IMG/VR virus record: IMGVR_UViG_3300038345_000144
DNA from: a virus
Lineage: Duplodnaviria; Caudoviricetes
Direction: 5' to 3' (one strand)
Length of the DNA: 64,000 nt
Part shown: piece by piece, positions 23,020 through 34,229 of the stretch
Position numbering within the stretch: the stretch's first letter is position 1
Layout of the letters: every line of letters begins with the position of its first letter
Notes under the pieces: model-generated
Told to the model about the DNA's origin: nothing
Database searches by the model: none
Seen by the model: the letters and a program-made list of their open reading frames with translations, nothing else
Program-made: the position numbers and the translations under genes

Positions 23020-23472
23020 TTAAAGTTTGTAATTAAACGCTTCCAGTGTTCGTAAAAAACAGGTCATATTGGGGGATTTACCTTGTGTTTTCCACATAAC
23101 CCACCCCTTACTATCATATATCTGCATAAGTGCCGATACAATACCAGCACTACGAGAAACACCAGCGTCGCAGTGAACGATAATCATATCTACTCTTTCA
23201 AACCAATGTTTTACAAAGGCACGGACCAGCATAGCGTCTTTATGAGTCATACAATGCTCCTTTGACCCCTGTAAAAACATAAGAGGGTCATCAGCCTCTA
23301 CATCATCAAAAGCCAATGACAGAATAGCCTGTACCTTATTGGTATCAGAGCAAAATACTTTAGGCGGGTCGGTGTCCCAACTCGACTTTATAGATATAAT
23401 TATGGATTTACGAGGGTGTTTTTGATTACAAAATCTTTCGCAAGTTGCCCTCGACACTGCCTTATATATCAT
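23020..23472 (-). CDS. Cys-based protein tyrosine/dual-specificity phosphatase
   Basis: FDD acid loop and VHCDAGVSRS (HCxxGxxRS) motif. Confidence 0.85.
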   Translation of the reverse strand: MIYKAVSRATCERFCNQKHPRKSIIISIKSSWDTDPPKVFCSDTNKVQAILSLAFDDVEADDPLMFLQGSKEHCMTHKDAMLVRAFVKHWFERVDMIIVHCDAGVSRSAGIVSALMQIYDSKGWVMWKTQGKSPNMTCFLRTLEAFNYKL

Positions 23473-25079: not shown

Positions 25080-25109
25080 ATTATATTAAATTAGCACCTA
25101 ATTTGTCAA
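25080..25109 (-). promoter_or_regulatory. Sigma-A type promoter
   Basis: TTGACA-N18-TATAAT on - strand. Confidence 0.8.
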
Positions 25110-25133: not shown

Positions 25134-26024
25134 TCAACACTGATGCGACTTCACCTCTTCGAGAGTTAAGATGTCCTTCTTACCGCATTTTTTACACCTG
25201 CAATAGAAGTTTCCGACATCTTTATATACATACGCTAAATTATCAATTTCTATGCCGTTTAAGGTAATGGGGAATGGGTGTGTAGTACCACCACGCAAAA
25301 ACGACCTATAAGAAGAGCATTTGACCGTTACCCCGTCCTCAAACTTTACTATAAAGTTCTTGGAGTTGATATAATTACTGATTTCTGCGGTCATACCATA
25401 CTTGGTCATTACTTTCTCACCCAGTCGGTATGATGCGGGCTGACCATTGTTATTTGGAGTTTTGTGTTTAGGGTGTCCTATCTTACCTCTCTTAAAGTTA
25501 GTGTAAGATTTGTGATAAACCTCCACGCCATCTTCAAATCTGATGTCAATATCCTGCCTGCCTCTATAAGCAATAACCGTCATCATAAGACCACACTTGG
25601 CTCTACTCTGCTCGTTCAGTCTTTCCTGCTTACGATGTTCAATAGTAGCCGTACTGCTACGCTTAAATCTATCGTCAGGGTGCTGTGTGTTGCCTAAAAG
25701 AAAACTTGCATACTTGGTCTTTATTTCTACCCCGTCCTCAAACCTGACCGTCATATCATCGGCATTATTGTATTCAATGATAGTCATAGTGTGACCGAGA
25801 TTATTCTTCTTGGTCTCTCCAACTCTATATTTATAGGCTCTTGAGTAGTTAGGGTTCTTAATGTAGCCCTTCAAATAGTGAGTATATCTCTGTTTATAGA
25901 CTATCGTACCGTCCTCAAACTGAATAGTAACATCGTCGATGTTCTTATAGTCAATTATGGTCATCATCTGTCCGTTAGATGCCCGCATTGTCTCCCCAAT
26001 GCGAAGGTCTCTATAATTTAACAT
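25134..26024 (-). CDS. Tandem-repeat protein 3 (4 repeats of about 52 aa plus C-terminal CxCxxC zinc-binding domain)
   Basis: Repeat RIGE......G.MMTII.Y....D..VxFEDG......Y..F.KG.I.HP; C-terminal GNFYCRCKKCG...H.C. Confidence 0.85.
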   Translation of the reverse strand: MLNYRDLRIGETMRASNGQMMTIIDYKNIDDVTIQFEDGTIVYKQRYTHYLKGYIKNPNYSRAYKYRVGETKKNNLGHTMTIIEYNNADDMTVRFEDGVEIKTKYASFLLGNTQHPDDRFKRSSTATIEHRKQERLNEQSRAKCGLMMTVIAYRGRQDIDIRFEDGVEVYHKSYTNFKRGKIGHPKHKTPNNNGQPASYRLGEKVMTKYGMTAEISNYINSKNFIVKFEDGVTVKCSSYRSFLRGGTTHPFPITLNGIEIDNLAYVYKDVGNFYCRCKKCGKKDILTLEEVKSHQC

Positions 26025-27070
26025 TTATGGTTTCTCACTTCTTCCAAATCCATAATGTCGGACATACCACACTTTGAGCAAGTACAATAGAAGTTACCAG
26101 TATTGTTGTAAACATAAGCCAGTTTCTTCATTGTAACATCGCCAATAGTATAAGGTAACAGACTTCTGGCACAATAGCCTCGTCTGAAGCCTGAAATGGC
26201 GATATGCTTAACAATTCTACCGTCCTCTAACTGAACATCAAGATTACGAGCACCGTGATAGTCAATAATCTTCATTTTAAGACCGTAGTTAGTCATAACT
26301 TCCTTGCCTATATTTCTCTTCTGTGCCTCTACGGTTCTTACAGAGAGATTAGGGTTACGGATATTGCCTGTTACAAAGTTACTGTACTGGCGATTAGGAA
26401 CAATAGTACCGTCTTCAAACTGGACATCCAAATCAATATTGGAGCCATATCTGATAATAGTCATCATCTGACCATTAGTAGCAAGATGGGTTTCTCCTAC
26501 TTTAGTTTCCGCATTTTTAGCCGTCAAAGACTTCTGCCAGTAATGAGAATGATTAGTAGGGTGTAAAATTTCACCACGCCTAAACGCTCCATATTGCTTA
26601 TTCTTAATGATTTCTCCATCTTCAAACTGAATATCAACATCACTGGCATTATGATACCTGATGATTGTCATTAGTAAACCACAATTTGACCTACTGGTTT
26701 CCCCAATCTTTGAATTTATAGGAACATCAATAGTGCCTACCTGAAAGTCTTTGTATGTCTGATTGTTGGCAATCTCTCCACTTTCAAATAGGACATCTAT
26801 ATCGTTGGGGTTTCTATAATCAAGGATAACCATTTTGGGACCGTGTACCGACTGGTTAATTTCACCTATCTTCTCCCAGTTTGGATTATGCTCCGTGGGT
26901 CGTTGTATTTCGCCTTGCCTAAAATGTTGATAACGCTTATGCACGGCAATTACACCGTCATCAAATCTAACGGTTACATCTTTATTATTACGATAAGCAA
27001 TCAAGGTCATCATCTGACCTGTTACTTTATGCTTATACTGTTCGCCTATCTTCGTAAATCCGACAGACAT
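26018..27070 (-). CDS. Tandem-repeat protein 2 (5 repeats plus C-terminal CxCxxC domain)
   Basis: Same repeat five times; GNFYCTCSKCG...H.C. Confidence 0.85.
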   Translation of the reverse strand: MSVGFTKIGEQYKHKVTGQMMTLIAYRNNKDVTVRFDDGVIAVHKRYQHFRQGEIQRPTEHNPNWEKIGEINQSVHGPKMVILDYRNPNDIDVLFESGEIANNQTYKDFQVGTIDVPINSKIGETSRSNCGLLMTIIRYHNASDVDIQFEDGEIIKNKQYGAFRRGEILHPTNHSHYWQKSLTAKNAETKVGETHLATNGQMMTIIRYGSNIDLDVQFEDGTIVPNRQYSNFVTGNIRNPNLSVRTVEAQKRNIGKEVMTNYGLKMKIIDYHGARNLDVQLEDGRIVKHIAISGFRRGYCARSLLPYTIGDVTMKKLAYVYNNTGNFYCTCSKCGMSDIMDLEEVRNHKC

Positions 27071-27924
27071 ATATGCTCCTTAATCTCCTTTAGGCTCATT
27101 ACATCAGACATTCCGCACTTACTACACTTACAAAAGTAATTGCCTTCATCCTTAAAGGTATATGCAGGCTTCTTCATTACTATATTTCCTATTTTATAAG
27201 GAAACGGGTGCTTAATAAGTCCCTTACGGATTGCGTCAAACCTGTTATGTTCTGATATGTAGCCGTCCTCGAACTGAACGGTCATATTATCGTATTTATC
27301 ACTTGCGATAATGGTCATCATCATACCATTAGCCGACATATACTTCTCTCCAGTTCTATTCTTAATCTGACAGTAACTATGAGAGTATTGAGGGTGTCTT
27401 ATTTCGCCTTTAAGAAAGTTGAAGTAAGAACGATGCTGAACTACCACTCCGTCCTCGAACTTTACATCAATATCGGTAGAAGTCCTATACTCAATAATGG
27501 TCATTATTAAGCCATTAGAGGCTTTATGAGACTCTCCAAGTCGGCGGTTTTTGAAGTAGTTAGGGTTCTTCAATCTGCCCTTTTGAAAGTTCACATATTT
27601 TGTATGACGAACAATTGTTCCGTCTGCAAATTGCACATCAACATCTTCACAACCACGATAACCAATTATAGTAACCTGCTCACCATAATATGAGGTATTA
27701 GTTTCTCCGATACGCTTTGTATTAGGTATCTGGCTACGATTAGCCGTAGGTCTGTTAGGATGTCCGATTTTGCCCTTCTTAAAAGCACAGTAATACTTAT
27801 GCTTAACCACAACTCCATCTTCGAACTGAATGGTTAAGTCTTCCGAACTCTCACCACCAATAATAGTCATCATCATACCATTATTGGCTCTGTTCTTTTC
27901 GCCTAAATGAATTGCACTTACCAT
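27046..27924 (-). CDS. Tandem-repeat protein 1 (4 repeats plus C-terminal CxCxxC domain)
   Basis: Same repeat four times; GNYFCKCSKCG...H.C; start overlaps the helicase stop codon. Confidence 0.85.
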   Translation of the reverse strand: MVSAIHLGEKNRANNGMMMTIIGGESSEDLTIQFEDGVVVKHKYYCAFKKGKIGHPNRPTANRSQIPNTKRIGETNTSYYGEQVTIIGYRGCEDVDVQFADGTIVRHTKYVNFQKGRLKNPNYFKNRRLGESHKASNGLIMTIIEYRTSTDIDVKFEDGVVVQHRSYFNFLKGEIRHPQYSHSYCQIKNRTGEKYMSANGMMMTIIASDKYDNMTVQFEDGYISEHNRFDAIRKGLIKHPFPYKIGNIVMKKPAYTFKDEGNYFCKCSKCGMSDVMSLKEIKEHICLSDLRR

Positions 27925-29534
27925 TACTTAACACCCATTACATCAAGAACTGCCTGTACTGCTACATTCTTTGCACGACAGAACGGTGGAAGTGGTACGG
28001 CTTTTGGTGCTTTCTGTGCCAAGATATAATCTCTGGTCATAATACGGCAGTCACCACCCTTTTCAACCCAACGCTCCCACGCTCTACGACACGGGATAGC
28101 CTCGATTTCAGCCACCGCCTTACCAATAAACTCTCGGTAAGTAGCCTCGTTTCCAGTAGCGATAAGGTTGAGGTCATCATAGTAGAGTTGGTTAATGTTA
28201 TACAAACTACCACTCTTTGGTGTCCTCTTCTTGTGTTTTGCAATAATTTGCTTCAACTCGACAAGCCTATCAGTTTCTTCCTGTGTAAGTTTTACAGGAT
28301 TTCCTGCTTTATTCTTGGAGTTCTGCTTCTTTACTAAAGCCTTATATTCTTCGAGGATAGCGTCAGGCACACCACTTTCATCTTCCTTGTTGGAAACGAA
28401 CATAGTGTACTTTGACTTTCTATGCACATTATCTACTACATCGAATACAATCTTTGGTCTTGCGTCACCTGTGGATAATGCTCTACCCAACTGCTGTGCA
28501 TATACAGTATTTGAGTATGTTGAACGGTACATAATGATACCTGTTAGGTTGTCAACGTGATAACCCATATTAAGCATTTCACACGAATAAATAAGGTCGA
28601 TTGTTTTGTCCTTACTCTTCAATTTACAGAGTTTCTTGACATTCTTTGCATATTCAGTTGTTTCTGAAGATACGATAGTCTCCCTAATCTTGTGTTTAGG
28701 ATATGCCGTAGCAAACCAACGCCTTACCGCCCTCTGCTTATCCTTCATATGTGCAAAGTTAGAGAAGAAGACGATATACTTCTGGTAATTTGTCTTGATT
28801 TTAGCGGTCTTGAGAGCCATCTTGATATTGACATCCATACGGTTAAGGTTAGCCAACTCAATCATCTTACCATTGAGAAGTTCTCTGGCGTAGCCCTCAT
28901 CTTCCTCATCTACATCAACCTTGAGCATAATATCCTTCTTGATATTAGACACAACATTAGGGTCTGATGAGTCAAAATCACAATAGCAATAGTATGGCTT
29001 CTTAATGATACCATCCTGAATAGCATCGTGGAGAGTGTACTTTGATGTTGTAATATCGTTAAAGAACATCGCAGTAACATCAATCATATCCATTCTATCA
29101 GGGGTAGCAGAAGCACCAAGTAACTTTGCTTTCTTATTATCATTAAGGATAGAACGCAAACCGTCCATTGTCTCTGGAGCACCAATTCTGTGATACTCGT
29201 CGCAAATGATAAGGTCTGTTCCCTTAATTGCTTCCATATCCTTTTCTGTAAGTTGTGTAACCTTCTGATAGGTCATAAATGTTACATCAGGGATATAACT
29301 GTTCATCAACAGTTTGTAGTCCTTTCCATAATAGAAATTGAATACAGCCTGTTTTACAACATCTGTCGGATATAGGTATAAAATCTTTTTATAATGTCCA
29401 CTCTTGATAAACTTTGTAAGAATACCAGTCTTTCCAAAACCAGTAGGTCTTATGATGGCACACTTCTTCTTTTTGTCAAGAAGTTTCAATGCCTCTTCAT
29501 AAGTTTCCTTTCTTAAGCGGTCTATTTTCTTCAT
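27924..29534 (-). CDS. Superfamily 2 DExH helicase/ATPase (ResIII-like)
   Basis: PTGFGKT (I), DEYH (II), SATP (III), MLNMGYH (V), QQLGRAL (VI), VFDVVDN. Confidence 0.9.
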   Translation of the reverse strand: MKKIDRLRKETYEEALKLLDKKKKCAIIRPTGFGKTGILTKFIKSGHYKKILYLYPTDVVKQAVFNFYYGKDYKLLMNSYIPDVTFMTYQKVTQLTEKDMEAIKGTDLIICDEYHRIGAPETMDGLRSILNDNKKAKLLGASATPDRMDMIDVTAMFFNDITTSKYTLHDAIQDGIIKKPYYCYCDFDSSDPNVVSNIKKDIMLKVDVDEEDEGYARELLNGKMIELANLNRMDVNIKMALKTAKIKTNYQKYIVFFSNFAHMKDKQRAVRRWFATAYPKHKIRETIVSSETTEYAKNVKKLCKLKSKDKTIDLIYSCEMLNMGYHVDNLTGIIMYRSTYSNTVYAQQLGRALSTGDARPKIVFDVVDNVHRKSKYTMFVSNKEDESGVPDAILEEYKALVKKQNSKNKAGNPVKLTQEETDRLVELKQIIAKHKKRTPKSGSLYNINQLYYDDLNLIATGNEATYREFIGKAVAEIEAIPCRRAWERWVEKGGDCRIMTRDYILAQKAPKAVPLPPFCRAKNVAVQAVLDVMGVK

Positions 29535-29568
29535 AGTGTAAATTACCCCTATTTTCAGTAATAGAGTT

Positions 29569-29597
29569 ATTATATTATAATAGTCAGCATTTGTAAA
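29569..29597 (-). promoter_or_regulatory. Sigma-A type promoter for the helicase operon, abutting the last repeat of array B
   Basis: TTTACA-N17-TATAAT on - strand. Confidence 0.75.
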
Positions 29598-30022
29598 GGA
29601 ACCTCCGAAAGTCGGAGAGATTTACCGTCTGCGATTACCGAGCCGTCCCTCATTGAATAACCTCCGAACTCGGAGACAATAACACTTAAACTTATAAGAC
29701 TGTGTACCCCTTGAGAAAAACCTCCGAACTCGGAGAAGTATCGTTGGAACTGCATATCCGTGTGACGATTTGTGATAAACCCCCGTAAATACGAGGAAAA
29801 CTTGCAGGTTTAATTGTTGCCTCCTGCCCCATAGAATAACCCCCGTAAACGAGGAACCAAAAGGTAGCACTGCCCGTCAAGCTATACGAGTGAGAAACCT
29901 CCAATTTGGAGAAAAAGTTGCCTCTTGTTTATACTTATGCTAAACCTCCGACACGGAGAATACTGGTTAATCACTGATAGAAAATTTCCAGCATTGAAAA
30001 ACCTCCAAACCTGGAGAAACAC
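29596..30022 (-). CRISPR. Orphan CRISPR-like array B: 8 degenerate type I-E-like repeats, 7 spacers
   Basis: Repeats at 29996-30022, 29939-29963, 29892-29917, 29834-29858, 29774-29801, 29715-29740, 29655-29679 and 29596-29621. Period is 57-60 nt with one of 47. Example: GTTTTCCTCGTATTTACGGGGGTTTATC, resembling Firmicutes I-E repeats of the GTTTT(T/C)CCCGCACACGCGGGGGTGATCC kind. Unique spacers of about 32, 21, 33, 32, 33, 35 and 33 nt. Confidence 0.82.
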
Positions 30023-30034
30023 TTTATTTACTAT

Positions 30035-30064
30035 ATGATACCAAGTTGAATGATTTTTTGTAAA
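30035..30064 (-). promoter_or_regulatory. Promoter driving array B
   Basis: TTTACA-N18-TATCAT with extended -10 TG, ending about 12 nt upstream of the first repeat. Confidence 0.65.
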
Positions 30065-30147: not shown

Positions 30148-32259
30148 TTATTTTCCGTGTACTTCAGTAATTTGTTCACCCTTTTTGAGTTTGAGAACTA
30201 CCTTACCACTGGCACTTCTACCCGCCTGAACATTCTGACCAACAGCGTCAATAGTGACAGTTCTCTGGTTAGTGGTAATCTCGATGTTCTCGTCCTCTTT
30301 GAGTAACTTAACAGCGATAACCTCGTCACCAGCAACCTTTAAGCCACATACCGTTGTACCGATAGCCTTACTAATCTTCAAGCAATTATCGACAGGCATC
30401 TTCTTACCAACACCAGTCTTGGTAACAAAGTAGATATAAGGCAAGTCAACATCTTCGGAATAGATAGCAATTACCTTTTCGTTCTTACCGATTTCAGGTC
30501 TCAAATCAGAGATATTGTTACCCGAAGCGGCAGGCATTACTACATCAATAGTATTTGACTTAATCTTATACATATTACCGAGGTTAGTAACCATAGTTAC
30601 ATACTGGTTGCCCTCAACTGTAATAAACTTACTGTCTTCGTCAGTAGACCTAAACTTTGTAGGGTCAACTCTCTTGAGTGTCTGTGCTTCTGTAAGAACG
30701 ACCTTGAATATCTTTTTAGGCTTTGCGACCTTTGGCTTTGTAACAGCAACTCTAATATCCTGCATTTCAATATCTTCGAGTTGTGTTTTTCTTTCCCAGC
30801 CGTACTTATCAACAAGAGCATTAAATTGCTTAACGAATAACTTTGTACGAGCCTTTTCGTCGTTAATCAACTTCTCGTCTTCAGCCTTCTGCTTCTCCAA
30901 AGAGTCCTTTTCGTCATTCAACTTCTGCTTTTCGAGGTTAGCAAGTTTACCGAGTTGTGTAGTTACGATAGCCTCTGCCTGTACTTCTGTGAAGTGGAGA
31001 GCCTTACCGTTCTTACCCTTAAAGGCTTTCTTAACGATTGCCTGCTTTGCATCTTCGGAAGACTTGGAGGATTTGATTGTCTTGATAATCTCGTCAATTA
31101 CATCTAAAGCGGAAAGCAAACCATAGAGGACTTCCAATCTGTGATTAACTTTATCAAGGTCATATTGAGCCTCTTTAACAATAATCTCCAAGTTCTTTCT
31201 TACAAAATATTCGATATACTTCGGAAGTGTGATAGTTTCTGGCTGACCACTCTCACCGATAGCAATATGAAGGTCGGTAATGTTGATTTGAAGAGGTGTT
31301 TTTCTATAAAGAAGTTCTCTTACATATTCAGCAGTACCCTCTTGACACATAATTTCAATCAAGAAGCCGTTTCTATCACAACGGTCTGCCATATCAACAA
31401 TCGGCACATTATCCGTAGTCTCTACGAGTTTCTTAACCTTCTCTCGATAATCTTTAGGGAAGTAGCCGTAAGGGAGTGAATAAATCTTGATAGTGTCACC
31501 TTCAATTTCGGTTTCACCTCTTAATCTGATTGTACCCTTACCAGTCTCATAAATACTGGCTAACTCTGACTTGTTGATGATGATACCACCCGTAGGGAAG
31601 TCAGGGAAAACCTTTGTGCAATCAACCTTACCAGTCTTGATAAAGTTCAAAATCTGGTCTCTTATCTCGAAAAGGTTAGAACTTGACCAAGTAGCCTTGA
31701 TACCATAACCCATTCCTAACTCATTTGTCATAAAGAGTAATGGAAGTTTAGCAACCCAATCCTGCAAGATAGGTTCAGGACACTCCTCGGAATAGTTCTT
31801 ACCCATATGCAAGATGTTTGTGTTATAGAACAACGCATCCTCAAGCACTTCTGCCATTCTGATTTCTGTATATCTCTGATTTGATACTTCAGGACCACCA
31901 ATCAAGGAGCCGTAACCACCGTGACCGTCAAGAAGCGGTACAGGATATACGAAATCTTGAGCCATACGAGCCATAACACCATATGCTCCTGCGTGAGGGT
32001 GGAACCTCATTACCTCACCCTCGACAGTTGCCGACTTGGTATAAGCCTTATTATGAAAGTGTCCGTTGTAGTACATAGCCCAAGCGACACGGGATTGAAC
32101 AGGCTTCTGACCATTAGATATATAGTTCATCTGACGGGATAAGTTAACCTCGTCACTATATTCGTGGAAGTCATCGTGAAGTTCCGTAACAATGTCTCTG
32201 TCAACAATAGGCTTTTCAATAATTTCTTTTTCTTCTGTAATTTTCTTTCTACGAGCCAT
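30148..32259 (-). CDS. gyrA: Type IIA topoisomerase subunit A (GyrA/ParC-like)
   Basis: GQKPVQSR, FHPH, catalytic RYTE, PDFPTGG, C-terminal pinwheel-like repeats; gyrase versus topo IV not resolved. Confidence 0.9.
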   Translation of the reverse strand: MARRKKITEEKEIIEKPIVDRDIVTELHDDFHEYSDEVNLSRQMNYISNGQKPVQSRVAWAMYYNGHFHNKAYTKSATVEGEVMRFHPHAGAYGVMARMAQDFVYPVPLLDGHGGYGSLIGGPEVSNQRYTEIRMAEVLEDALFYNTNILHMGKNYSEECPEPILQDWVAKLPLLFMTNELGMGYGIKATWSSSNLFEIRDQILNFIKTGKVDCTKVFPDFPTGGIIINKSELASIYETGKGTIRLRGETEIEGDTIKIYSLPYGYFPKDYREKVKKLVETTDNVPIVDMADRCDRNGFLIEIMCQEGTAEYVRELLYRKTPLQINITDLHIAIGESGQPETITLPKYIEYFVRKNLEIIVKEAQYDLDKVNHRLEVLYGLLSALDVIDEIIKTIKSSKSSEDAKQAIVKKAFKGKNGKALHFTEVQAEAIVTTQLGKLANLEKQKLNDEKDSLEKQKAEDEKLINDEKARTKLFVKQFNALVDKYGWERKTQLEDIEMQDIRVAVTKPKVAKPKKIFKVVLTEAQTLKRVDPTKFRSTDEDSKFITVEGNQYVTMVTNLGNMYKIKSNTIDVVMPAASGNNISDLRPEIGKNEKVIAIYSEDVDLPYIYFVTKTGVGKKMPVDNCLKISKAIGTTVCGLKVAGDEVIAVKLLKEDENIEITTNQRTVTIDAVGQNVQAGRSASGKVVLKLKKGEQITEVHGK

Positions 32260-32261
32260 AA

Positions 32262-34229
32262 TTACTCCTCCGTTGCTGAACCATCGTACTCAACCGAGCC
32301 GTGATAGAGGTAATCCTTACGAGCGTAAGCATTACTACCCTTAACTAACTCTAACCACTCTTCAAACTCTTGTTCGTCCTTAACTACCAAACGCTTCAAG
32401 TTACGAGTAGCAGGGTTAACCAACTGGTCATAAGTGTCGTCCTGTGACATTTCACCAAGACCCTTTGCTCTGGCAACTGTATATTTCTTACTCTTGTTCT
32501 TTTCTCTCCACTTGTTGAGTTCTGCATCGTTCTGGAAGAGAATATACTCACCATTAGGGAAAGTAACCTTATACAACGCACCATATACACGATAGATATA
32601 GCCGTTATATATAAGTTCAGGGCAAATTCTGTGGAATACCGTGATAAGAAGCATAGCAATATCAGAACCGTCGGCATCAGCGTCCGTTGTAATGATAATC
32701 TTGCTATATCTCAACTTCTTTTCGTCAAAGATAAGTCTAACGGCATTACCGTCTTCCATACTCAAACCGAGAGACTTAATAATAGCCATAACCTCACCAT
32801 TCTGCAAAATCTTTGAGGCAGAAACATCTTTACAGTTAAGTATCTTACCTCTAATAGGGAATGATGCTTGGAAAGAACTGTCCTTAACAGCGTTGATAGA
32901 CCCTACGGCAGAGTCACCCTCGCAAATCATAAGTTCGCACTTACTTCTATCACGCTTGTCCTTTGGATATGCGTCAGAAAGTTTTGTAGGAAGGTCAGTA
33001 AAGAGAGCCTTTGCACCCTTACCCTTCTTAACTTCACGCATCTTCTCACGGATTTTCTTGACTTCCTCTTCTTCTTTTCTCTGCTGAAGAGCCTTTTCTG
33101 TCATCATCTTGAGGCAGTCCTGATTATTACATAACCAAGTAGCAAAGTCACCACCGATAACGGCATTGATGATAGAAGCGTCAATATCGTCAACGATAGA
33201 CTTATTCTGTGCCTCGTATCTAACAGAAGCGGTTGTCATATTAAATACTACATATAATCCCTTTGAAACTTCGCTGAATGTGAAATTTTTATCCGACTTC
33301 TTGAGTAATCCCAAATCGGTTGCACACTTATTAACGGCTCTTACAAATGATGTCTTGAAAGCACCCAAGTGAGCACCACCAACAGTCGCACCGAGATTTA
33401 CGAAAGCCTCGATATGCTCATCATAGTTAGCAACCATAGTGATACAAATATTGAGAGAGTCGTCACCCATAGTTCTATTAGTAATGAACCTCTGTGGGAA
33501 TACCTCGTTATGTTCAACTTTCTTTGATACATACGCAGGCAATCCCTCTGGTTCGTGGAATACCTCTGTTGTACCATCGTGCGTATATTCAATTGTAAGG
33601 TTAGGACAGAACGCACAAGTCGGAGCAAACCAAGACTTGAGTGCATATACATTAGGAACATTCTCATTAAAGAATTGAGGGTCAGGAGACCAAGTAACTT
33701 CTGTACCTGAAGGTCTCTTTTTCTTACCAACTTCCCTCTTCTTGAGAAGTCCGTCCACAAAATCAAGTGACTCATACTCTCCGTCTCTATAAGAAGTTAC
33801 ATTTAACTTCAAGGAGAGCCAGTTAGCCAGTTTTGCACCGATACCGTTAAGACCGAGGGCAGAACCAGCATATACGCCGTTGTCTGTGGACTTACCTGAT
33901 GTGTTAATCGTATCAAACGACCTCTGCAAGATTGTCTTACCGTCTTTCATCGGCTCACCAGTCTTACGGTCAATACCTGGGTCGTTGATGATAAATCCTT
34001 GTCCATTATCCTTAACGGAATAAACATTATTTTTAGTATCAGAACTAACCGTAATGTGGTCGCCGTTACCGATAATGTGTTCGTCAATGGAGTTCGCAAC
34101 AATCTCTTTAATTAAGTTTGTGTTGTCTTTTGCTGAACCAAGATAAGTAGACGGTGCTCGTCTTGTGTACTCTCTTGGGTCTTCTTGATAAATACTTGAG
34201 TTGTCATAAGAATGTTTTACTTCACCCAT
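32262..34229 (-). CDS. gyrB: Type IIA topoisomerase subunit B (GyrB/ParE-like)
   Basis: EIVANSIDE, KDNGQG, GLNGIG, EGDSA, PIRGKILN, DADADG, KGLGEM. Confidence 0.93.
   Translation of the reverse strand: MGEVKHSYDNSSIYQEDPREYTRRAPSTYLGSAKDNTNLIKEIVANSIDEHIIGNGDHITVSSDTKNNVYSVKDNGQGFIINDPGIDRKTGEPMKDGKTILQRSFDTINTSGKSTDNGVYAGSALGLNGIGAKLANWLSLKLNVTSYRDGEYESLDFVDGLLKKREVGKKKRPSGTEVTWSPDPQFFNENVPNVYALKSWFAPTCAFCPNLTIEYTHDGTTEVFHEPEGLPAYVSKKVEHNEVFPQRFITNRTMGDDSLNICITMVANYDEHIEAFVNLGATVGGAHLGAFKTSFVRAVNKCATDLGLLKKSDKNFTFSEVSKGLYVVFNMTTASVRYEAQNKSIVDDIDASIINAVIGGDFATWLCNNQDCLKMMTEKALQQRKEEEEVKKIREKMREVKKGKGAKALFTDLPTKLSDAYPKDKRDRSKCELMICEGDSAVGSINAVKDSSFQASFPIRGKILNCKDVSASKILQNGEVMAIIKSLGLSMEDGNAVRLIFDEKKLRYSKIIITTDADADGSDIAMLLITVFHRICPELIYNGYIYRVYGALYKVTFPNGEYILFQNDAELNKWREKNKSKKYTVARAKGLGEMSQDDTYDQLVNPATRNLKRLVVKDEQEFEEWLELVKGSNAYARKDYLYHGSVEYDGSATEE

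Follow-up and report, generated by a model that had tools for sequence, protein, structure and literature searches.

A recurrent phage module of a nuclease-free SF2 helicase and capped repeat arrays that may act as DNA-site readers

A recurrent two-component phage module

The 64,000-nucleotide (nt) stretch of DNA from the Caudoviricetes virus record IMGVR_UViG_3300038345_000144, a giant rumen phage (here called the window), carries on its minus strand a gene for a superfamily 2 (SF2) helicase, followed by three paralogous genes, R1, R2 and R3, whose products consist of four or five modules of 52 amino acids (aa) and a shared C-terminal segment, the cap. Helicase and capped arrays constitute a real and recurrent two-component phage module, one that is often met with among the very large phages of gut and rumen. 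The best reading, held at about even odds, is that the arrays recognize specific DNA sites and there direct or regulate an SF2 translocase that does not cut. Computed support for this reading comes from the architecture and the fold of the proteins, from the domains to which such arrays are fused elsewhere and from gene linkage; DNA binding by R1–R3, contact with the helicase and the target, be it the phage origin, host DNA or a competitor, are only inferred.

About 95 loci around helicase homologs were scanned with hidden Markov models (HMMs) of the repeat and of the helicase, and the homologs were grouped into lineages by dereplication at 90% identity, with readable flanks required (n = 30). 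In 24 of these 30 lineages one to six array genes directly adjoin the helicase gene on the same strand, either upstream or downstream of it, and both the copy number and the module number of the arrays vary between relatives. Seen from the other side, all five capped multi-module proteins that were examined on long contigs (72–545 kb) adjoin a ResIII helicase of 527–537 aa. The tight co-occurrence for which the preliminary description of this locus had proposed a neighbourhood survey is thus found in both directions. When neighbouring open reading frames (ORFs) were clustered, the helicase was present at 45 of 45 loci and arrays at 36, the next family occurring at only 7. Arrays are found in 21 of the 23 lineages whose helicase has the C-terminal domain described below, versus 3 of the 7 without it (Fisher p = 0.016, with small numbers). 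At the 45 loci neither a nuclease or methyltransferase partner nor a specificity subunit is conserved beside the module, so that the 'restriction-like' system envisaged in the preliminary description is unsupported.

In one lineage, from the human gut, the two components are joined in a single protein. At this locus (L081, 5537–7246) the helicase core and one full module at the C-terminus share a single reading frame, the module being recognized with an E-value of 7e-14 and both ResIII and Helicase_C being confirmed. The proteins encoded on either side of the fusion gene measure 579–585 aa and contain four detected modules together with long unmatched stretches, which may hold divergent modules.

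Organization of the operon

The helicase gene (29534..27924, 536 aa) and the genes of R1 (27924..27046, 292 aa), R2 (27070..26018, 350 aa) and R3 (26024..25134, 296 aa) all lie on the minus strand. R1 contains four modules (aa 6–241, nt 27202–27909) and a zinc cap (nt 27055–27210), and has an isoelectric point (pI) of 9.2. R2 contains five modules (aa 8–304, nt 26159–27049) and a zinc cap (nt 26021–26170), while R3 again has four (aa 8–251, nt 25272–26003) and a zinc cap (nt 25137–25286). The ORF positions, the 4, 5 and 4 copies (13 in total) of the module (E-values of 1e-86 to 1e-104 with the repeat HMM) and the presence of a CxCxxC...HxC ending in R1, R2 and R3 all agree with what had been described at first.

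The four genes follow each other without gaps. The helicase stop and the R1 start overlap in the sequence TAATG, R1 and R2 overlap by 25 nt with an AAGGAG preceding the R2 start inside the overlap, and R2 and R3 overlap in ATGTTAA. Judged from these junctions, the helicase, R1, R2 and R3 genes are predicted to be translationally coupled. The earlier statement that one promoter drives four coupled genes is therefore supported as far as the overlapping junctions go; the promoter itself is a pattern match only, a TTTACA-17-TATAAT site at 29597–29569 (minus strand), 35 nt upstream of the helicase start, which agrees with the consensus at 11 of 12 positions. A second promoter-like site, a perfect TTGACA-18-TATAAT that is likewise a pattern match only, is located after the R3 stop at 25109–25080 (minus strand) and would serve the next gene. 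In a scan with a sigma-70-like consensus 19 sites were found in the region, versus 17 expected by chance from shuffled sequence.

The repeat modules and their fold

The 13 copies of the 52-aa unit show a mean pairwise identity of 40% (range 27–56%), and the repeat HMM matches nothing else in the window besides R1–R3. The three proteins are basic, with pI values of 8.7–9.3, and polar or basic residues predominate in the variable columns of an alignment of 763 modules. R2 was modelled with AlphaFold2 using 20 homologs, and the model reaches a predicted local distance difference test score (pLDDT) of 85. In this model the modules are arranged as beads on a string, each comprising a short strand followed by a long hairpin, then a fourth strand and a short helix. 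Comparison with solved structures reveals matches of the R2 modules to KOW, Tudor and SH3-like barrels with Z-scores of 4–5 over approximately 45 residues, including the KOW domains of Spt5/NusG, the Tudor domains of PcrA/UvrD and of chromatin (histone) readers, and the N-terminal barrel of Hpy99I. The modules are accordingly modelled as SH3/KOW-like β-barrels, an assignment that concerns the fold class and not the function.

A Foldseek comparison of the whole R2 model with BFVD returned as best matches phage proteins named homing endonuclease, zinc-ribbon, treble-clef, DUF2726 or 'CapR homology domain', and a sequence search of solved structures with R2 gave no match. No nuclease family was recognized in R1–R3 by Pfam, PHROGs, NCBIfam or PADLOC, in line with the initial remark that no nuclease motif is present, and PADLOC has no family for the arrays. 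Against DUF6763, Phage_T4_Gp30_7 and DUF2187 the three proteins score 12–25 bits, below the Pfam cut-offs of 25–27, and some longer array homologs pass these thresholds by summed partial matches, which suggests that the three families probably share the barrel motif with the modules. A literature search on DUF6763, DUF5780 and gp30.7 yielded nothing relevant. The nearest neighbours of the arrays by language model include DUF4379 arrays.

The fold invites an explanation in which the modules, like Tudor and KOW domains, have protein or RNA as their ligand and might tether the helicase to the phage RNA polymerase or to transcripts. It draws on the best solved matches themselves, i.e., Spt5/NusG KOW domains, the C-terminal Tudor domains of PcrA/UvrD, which bind RNA polymerase, and histone-reading Tudor domains. 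These matches are, however, those of generic small barrels, and elsewhere these arrays are joined to DNA nucleases and to the TniQ of Tn7-like elements (see below), where a DNA site must be chosen, so that binding of protein or RNA appears quite unlikely as the main role of the modules.

The C-terminal cap

The cap has the pattern CxCxxC-13-HxC in all three paralogs, and its five ligands, arranged 3+2, are invariant in 24 sequences. A profile of these 24 caps, searched against 1.84 billion representative proteins, returned only 274 clusters (E <= 0.001). In nearly every one of these the cap forms the very C-terminal end of the protein, and modules are also present in 125 of the 138 matches that were new to this search. 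The profile also matches P0351 (E 1.5e-14), a protein composed of four canonical FGKLTVI...Y.C.C.CGN...SCGC units, and hhalign aligns it to these units with a probability of 95.9% (E 5.5e-9), the cap spacer being about five residues shorter than in the canonical CxCxC...CxC units. P0351 itself matches 1,203 phage records; among the 30 matches listed, several are annotated as HNH endonuclease or AP2. These profile matches relate the cap to the CxCxC...CxC zinc module that is found in homing-endonuclease-like phage proteins of the HNH/AP2 type. In phage ICP1 (HQ641347), where the original CapR-homology domain (CxxC...CxC) is part of the homing endonucleases, a direct search with the cap profile and with P0351 gave no match.

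The canonical P0351 units have the same cysteine spacing as the 'CapR domain' of CasPR. In the DNA-binding CasPR anti-CRISPRs, mutation of the CapR-domain cysteines abolishes activity (preprint, bioRxiv 10.64898/2026.02.23.707548), and CapR is a domesticated DNA-binding domain of a homing endonuclease (PMC8096241). The possibility that the repeats are zinc-less CapR domains was dropped when hhalign revealed no kinship between the repeats and either the cap or the canonical zinc units; the cysteine-free repeat and these units are alike only in the order of their secondary-structure elements. Two further proteins, P0415 (491 aa) and P0378 (305 aa), consist of arrays of CxxC...C..C modules ending in the same cap as R1–R3, and these arrays may be zinc-binding counterparts of the cysteine-free ones.

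The kinship of the cap bears on an explanation in which the arrays alone are transcriptional silencers or regulators, like CapR and CasPR, and the helicase is an ordinary replication or recombination helicase that shares their operon. The cap belongs to a zinc-module family that is needed for cas-gene silencing (bioRxiv 10.64898/2026.02.23.707548), and CapR provides the precedent of a nuclease-free homing-endonuclease derivative that acts as a repressor (PMC8096241). Capped single-module proteins occur without a helicase, and the helicase gene adjoins topoisomerase II genes both here and in two relatives. The gene linkage points the other way. The pairing is kept down to a helicase identity of about 35–40%, in unrelated contexts and in either gene order, with no third conserved gene; in addition, the helicase and a module are fused in the L081 lineage and the genes of the window appear to be translationally coupled. 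Genes with unconnected functions should not remain paired so consistently, and regulation by the arrays alone is considered unlikely.

The helicase

The helicase matches Pfam ResIII with 54.8 bits (cut-off 22.5), DEAD with 40.7 bits, and PHROG 16 (phrog_16). The second RecA lobe, Helicase_C, scores 21.3 bits in the window protein, just below the cut-off of 23.5, and 28.8 bits in the L081 ortholog. Motifs I, II, III and VI are intact, with GFGKTG, DEYH/DECH, SAT/TAT and QQLGR (nearly) invariant among 16 orthologs of 43–68% identity; motif II of the window helicase reads DEYH. Among solved structures the SauUSI motor (7clg, E 4.5e-19) and HsdR (3h1t, E 7e-12) come closest, followed by RadD and XPB, and PADLOC gives weak matches to type IV restriction (mREase_IV) and PbeA. 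In family scans the 536-aa protein matched no nuclease family. On the basis of these family and structure matches the protein can be assigned to the SF2 ResIII type, as a restriction-type motor that lacks a nuclease domain. It ends in a C-terminal domain of approximately 80 aa, which is conserved across the 16 orthologs and matches no family; in a language-model search with this domain all scores were below 0.8.

The same modules in other genomes

The module family is large, with more than 240 clusters at 90% identity (204 + 40, from two length-limited searches) and 1–11 modules per member. In bacterial metagenome-assembled genomes the array is usually encoded by a single gene, with 6–11 modules and a domain with invariant E..D, EYDG..H and K, i.e., the nuclease-type motifs E..D / EYDG..WH / K. 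The model of this EYDG domain (pLDDT 83, predicted template modelling score 0.81) was compared exhaustively with solved structures, and the top three chains were Vsr (1cw0, Z 8.0), the endonuclease-like 3hrl (Z 7.7) and I-Bth0305I (3r3p, Z 7.7, 93 of 98 residues), the last chain being the catalytic domain of an EDxHD homing endonuclease. Although a Z-score near 8 is middling, the three chains are mutually consistent, and the motif is in accord with them. Foldseek on the same model gave no match at E <= 0.001 and a weak list rich in PD-(D/E)xK enzymes, and sequence searches of solved structures with P0111 and with a profile of the nuclease domain gave no match. Of these comparisons only the exhaustive one placed Vsr-like chains first, and on that basis the domain is read as a Vsr/EDxHD-like nuclease domain.

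Other array members are fused to DUF2726 nuclease domains or to an N-terminal TniQ. Two TniQ-array fusions form the end of TnsA / TnsB-like / AAA_22 / TniQ operons of Tn7-like transposons (L138, 1843–10097, and L139, 1612–10784), in which a TnsA-like protein, a protein of 700–765 aa with a weak rve match, AAA_22 and TniQ are followed by a second TniQ with an array of the 52-aa modules. This second TniQ may represent a new class of transposon target selector. On gut Firmicutes chromosomes (L004–L006, 8001–9821) the gene for a protein of 606 aa, in which seven modules are combined with a Vsr-like nuclease domain, stands alone between two complete F-type ATP synthase operons, beside a Fic gene, a location typical for selfish nuclease genes. 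Neither the forms with a nuclease nor those with TniQ have a helicase in their vicinity. In Vibrio phage helene, the only match among GenBank phages, four modules precede an AP2-type region in a protein that is annotated as HNH endonuclease and matches the repeat HMM weakly.

The remark in the preliminary description that the module resembles N-terminal segments of some phage HNH-type homing endonucleases is supported by these fusions to Vsr/EDxHD-like domains, DUF2726 and TniQ and by the AP2-type protein of helene. They support the view that the module belongs to the DNA-binding toolkit of homing-endonuclease-like proteins. As the attached nucleases and TniQ must choose a DNA site, their domain partnership suggests that the arrays are DNA-site readers. 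The pattern is one in which a single array family serves alternative effectors, and in large phages the effector is the motor described here.

The same relatives raise the question whether the arrays beside the helicase are remnants of free-standing homing endonuclease genes, or users of a nuclease in trans, that were inserted next to the helicase as target or cargo. Relatives with the same arrays do carry Vsr/EDxHD-like or DUF2726 nuclease domains, and the array copy number and module number vary between relatives. Homing endonuclease genes typically adjoin conserved phage genes, and repeated, recombining DNA-binding domains are known from the phage enzymes (bioRxiv 10.1101/2023.03.23.533998). 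Such an origin, however, is difficult to reconcile with the state of the arrays. The nuclease motif E[YFW]DG..[WFY]H is found in none of the 88 array genes at helicase loci, the arrays are intact, with the cap strongly conserved across more than 20 lineages, and they are near-universally present among close helicase orthologs, whereas decay predicts presence/absence polymorphism and pseudogenes. Decayed or nuclease-borrowing homing genes are for these reasons held to be improbable.

Surroundings of the operon

Directly upstream of the operon, at 30148–34229 on the minus strand of the window, are the genes of a topoisomerase II A-like protein (703 aa) and a B-like protein (655 aa). In L003 and L143 the genes are found in the same order, topoisomerase, helicase, arrays. 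Array B (29597–30064, minus strand) occupies the interval between topoisomerase II and the promoter-like site of the helicase and consists of eight hairpins (CTCCGAGTTCGGAGG-like stems with GTT... after them), repeated at a spacing of about 58–61 nt. Its last hairpin, directly after which the promoter-like site is located, scores as a terminator too.

The position of the operon immediately downstream of this CRISPR-like array, on the same strand, is what could make it an accessory of array B, and a functional link had been left open in the preliminary description. The helicase, however, has a promoter-like site of its own, and the hairpin motif is absent from 139 other loci examined, about 45 of which have the module. 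Moreover, in the syntenic relatives L003 and L143 only some 140 nt separate topoisomerase II from the helicase, which leaves no room for such an array. A role as array accessory is thus highly improbable, and array B beside the module looks like an incidental adjacency.

No iteron-like tandem DNA repeats, as possible binding sites, were found in the window. DNA-level and single-sequence searches revealed no close phage relatives, and in tblastn searches against GenBank phages R2 matched phage helene only and the helicase one fecal contig only. Further along the minus strand, a 150-aa ORF (23020–23472) contains the sequence HCDAGVSRS, a match to the C(X)5R signature known from protein tyrosine and dual-specificity phosphatases.

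Proposed mode of action

If the arrays are site-specific DNA readers for the helicase, the module would consist of a nuclease-free, restriction-type SF2 motor and one to six DNA-reading proteins. The basic, fast-diverging arrays would bind specific DNA sites, and would either bring the helicase to these sites or control it there. With ATP, the helicase would then unwind the DNA or push proteins off it, without cutting.

Several observations weigh against this reading. Six of the 30 helicase lineages, mostly distant ones, have no detectable arrays; the HMM may miss divergent ones. The linkage could also result from co-regulation or from the insertion of a selfish element. The fold matches are weak (Z 4–5), as expected for 45-residue domains, and SH3/Tudor/KOW-like barrels bind proteins and RNA too. 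By hhalign, repeat and cap are not detectably related in sequence. Small Lachnospiraceae proteins combine the cap with one module and have no helicase within 8 kb, from which it follows that the cap is not helicase-specific. In some lineages, finally, the caps have replaced zinc ligands and kept other conserved positions. Aromatic and helix positions are retained in the ligand-less tails of L011, L051, L052, L046 and L047 (for example ...FYGFTDIRKSFEYNG.VYYLC.D..G.GQ.YTLQ.MM...G...F), and the cap fold may therefore not always need zinc.

The Lachnospiraceae proteins also affect the earlier suggestion that the arrays dock on the helicase through their shared C-terminal domain. Docking of this kind is possible but unsupported, and it is weakened both by these helicase-free proteins and by the kinship of the cap to a zinc module implicated in DNA binding.

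A bolder version of the DNA-reader proposal, and a doubtful one, is that the barrels constitute a new class of code-like modular DNA-reading repeats that is used in three effectors, i.e., Vsr-like nucleases, Tn7 TniQ and, in giant phages, a stand-alone SF2 translocase. The phage form would then be a protein-programmed 'targeted helicase' that clears or opens chosen sites and leaves the DNA uncut, with the paralogs providing several addresses. If the arrays do read DNA module by module, they would offer a natural modular recognition scaffold beside zinc fingers and TALE repeats, one that is already wired to nucleases, transposon targeting and a motor. A nuclease-free, site-directed helicase would, if true, be a new phage tool for the start of replication, host takeover or conflict with rival elements. 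A literature search found no description of a module of helicase and arrays. Its parts are of known kinds, namely homing-endonuclease-derived DNA-binding proteins and restriction-type motors, whereas the combination and the cysteine-free barrel arrays are new.

Comparison with known systems

The closest parallels to R1–R3 as proteins are the CasPR anti-CRISPRs and PLE CapR, which likewise come from phages or satellites and retain of a homing-endonuclease-like gene only the part that binds DNA. The cysteine spacing of CasPR is also that of the CxCxC...CxC units to which the cap is related (95.9% by hhalign). Unlike CasPR and CapR, R1–R3 have four or five cysteine-free SH3-like modules before a shortened CxCxxC...HxC finger, contain no AP2 or helix-turn-helix region, and are tied to a helicase. 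The homing endonuclease I-Bth0305I (EDxHD/Vsr-like) resembles the bacterial array relatives, which carry a Vsr-like domain (Z 7.7 to 3r3p and Z 8.0 to 1cw0). Its DNA-binding region is followed by the nuclease (PMC3239194), the same order as in the relatives whose array-fused nuclease is C-terminal. I-Bth0305I uses NUMOD helix-turn-helix motifs, not barrels, and R1–R3 are without any nuclease. As beads on a string with a variable module number, the arrays are also comparable to the DUF4379 treble-clef zinc-ribbon arrays and to the repeated CapR/DUF723 domains of T5orf172 homing endonucleases; in contrast to these, the phage modules lack zinc ligands, score below every Pfam threshold and have no attached nuclease.

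The motors of type I restriction and of SauUSI-type (type IV) restriction are the closest to the phage helicase, and the idea of separate, variable specificity subunits that serve a translocase resembles HsdS with HsdR. The phage module differs from type I and type IV restriction in that it has no motor nuclease, methyltransferase or HsdS-like subunit, and none is conserved nearby. Another parallel is provided by the TniQ/TnsD proteins of Tn7-like elements, in which a DNA reader recruits an ATPase and some TniQ proteins carry the same arrays. R1–R3 have no TniQ domain, however, and their partner is an SF2 helicase instead of the AAA+ protein TnsC. Herpesvirus origin-binding helicases of the UL9 type combine an SF2 motor with a sequence-specific DNA-binding part. 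Their resemblance to the L081 fusion is one of layout; in the phage module the reader is usually a separate protein, and it is multiplied.

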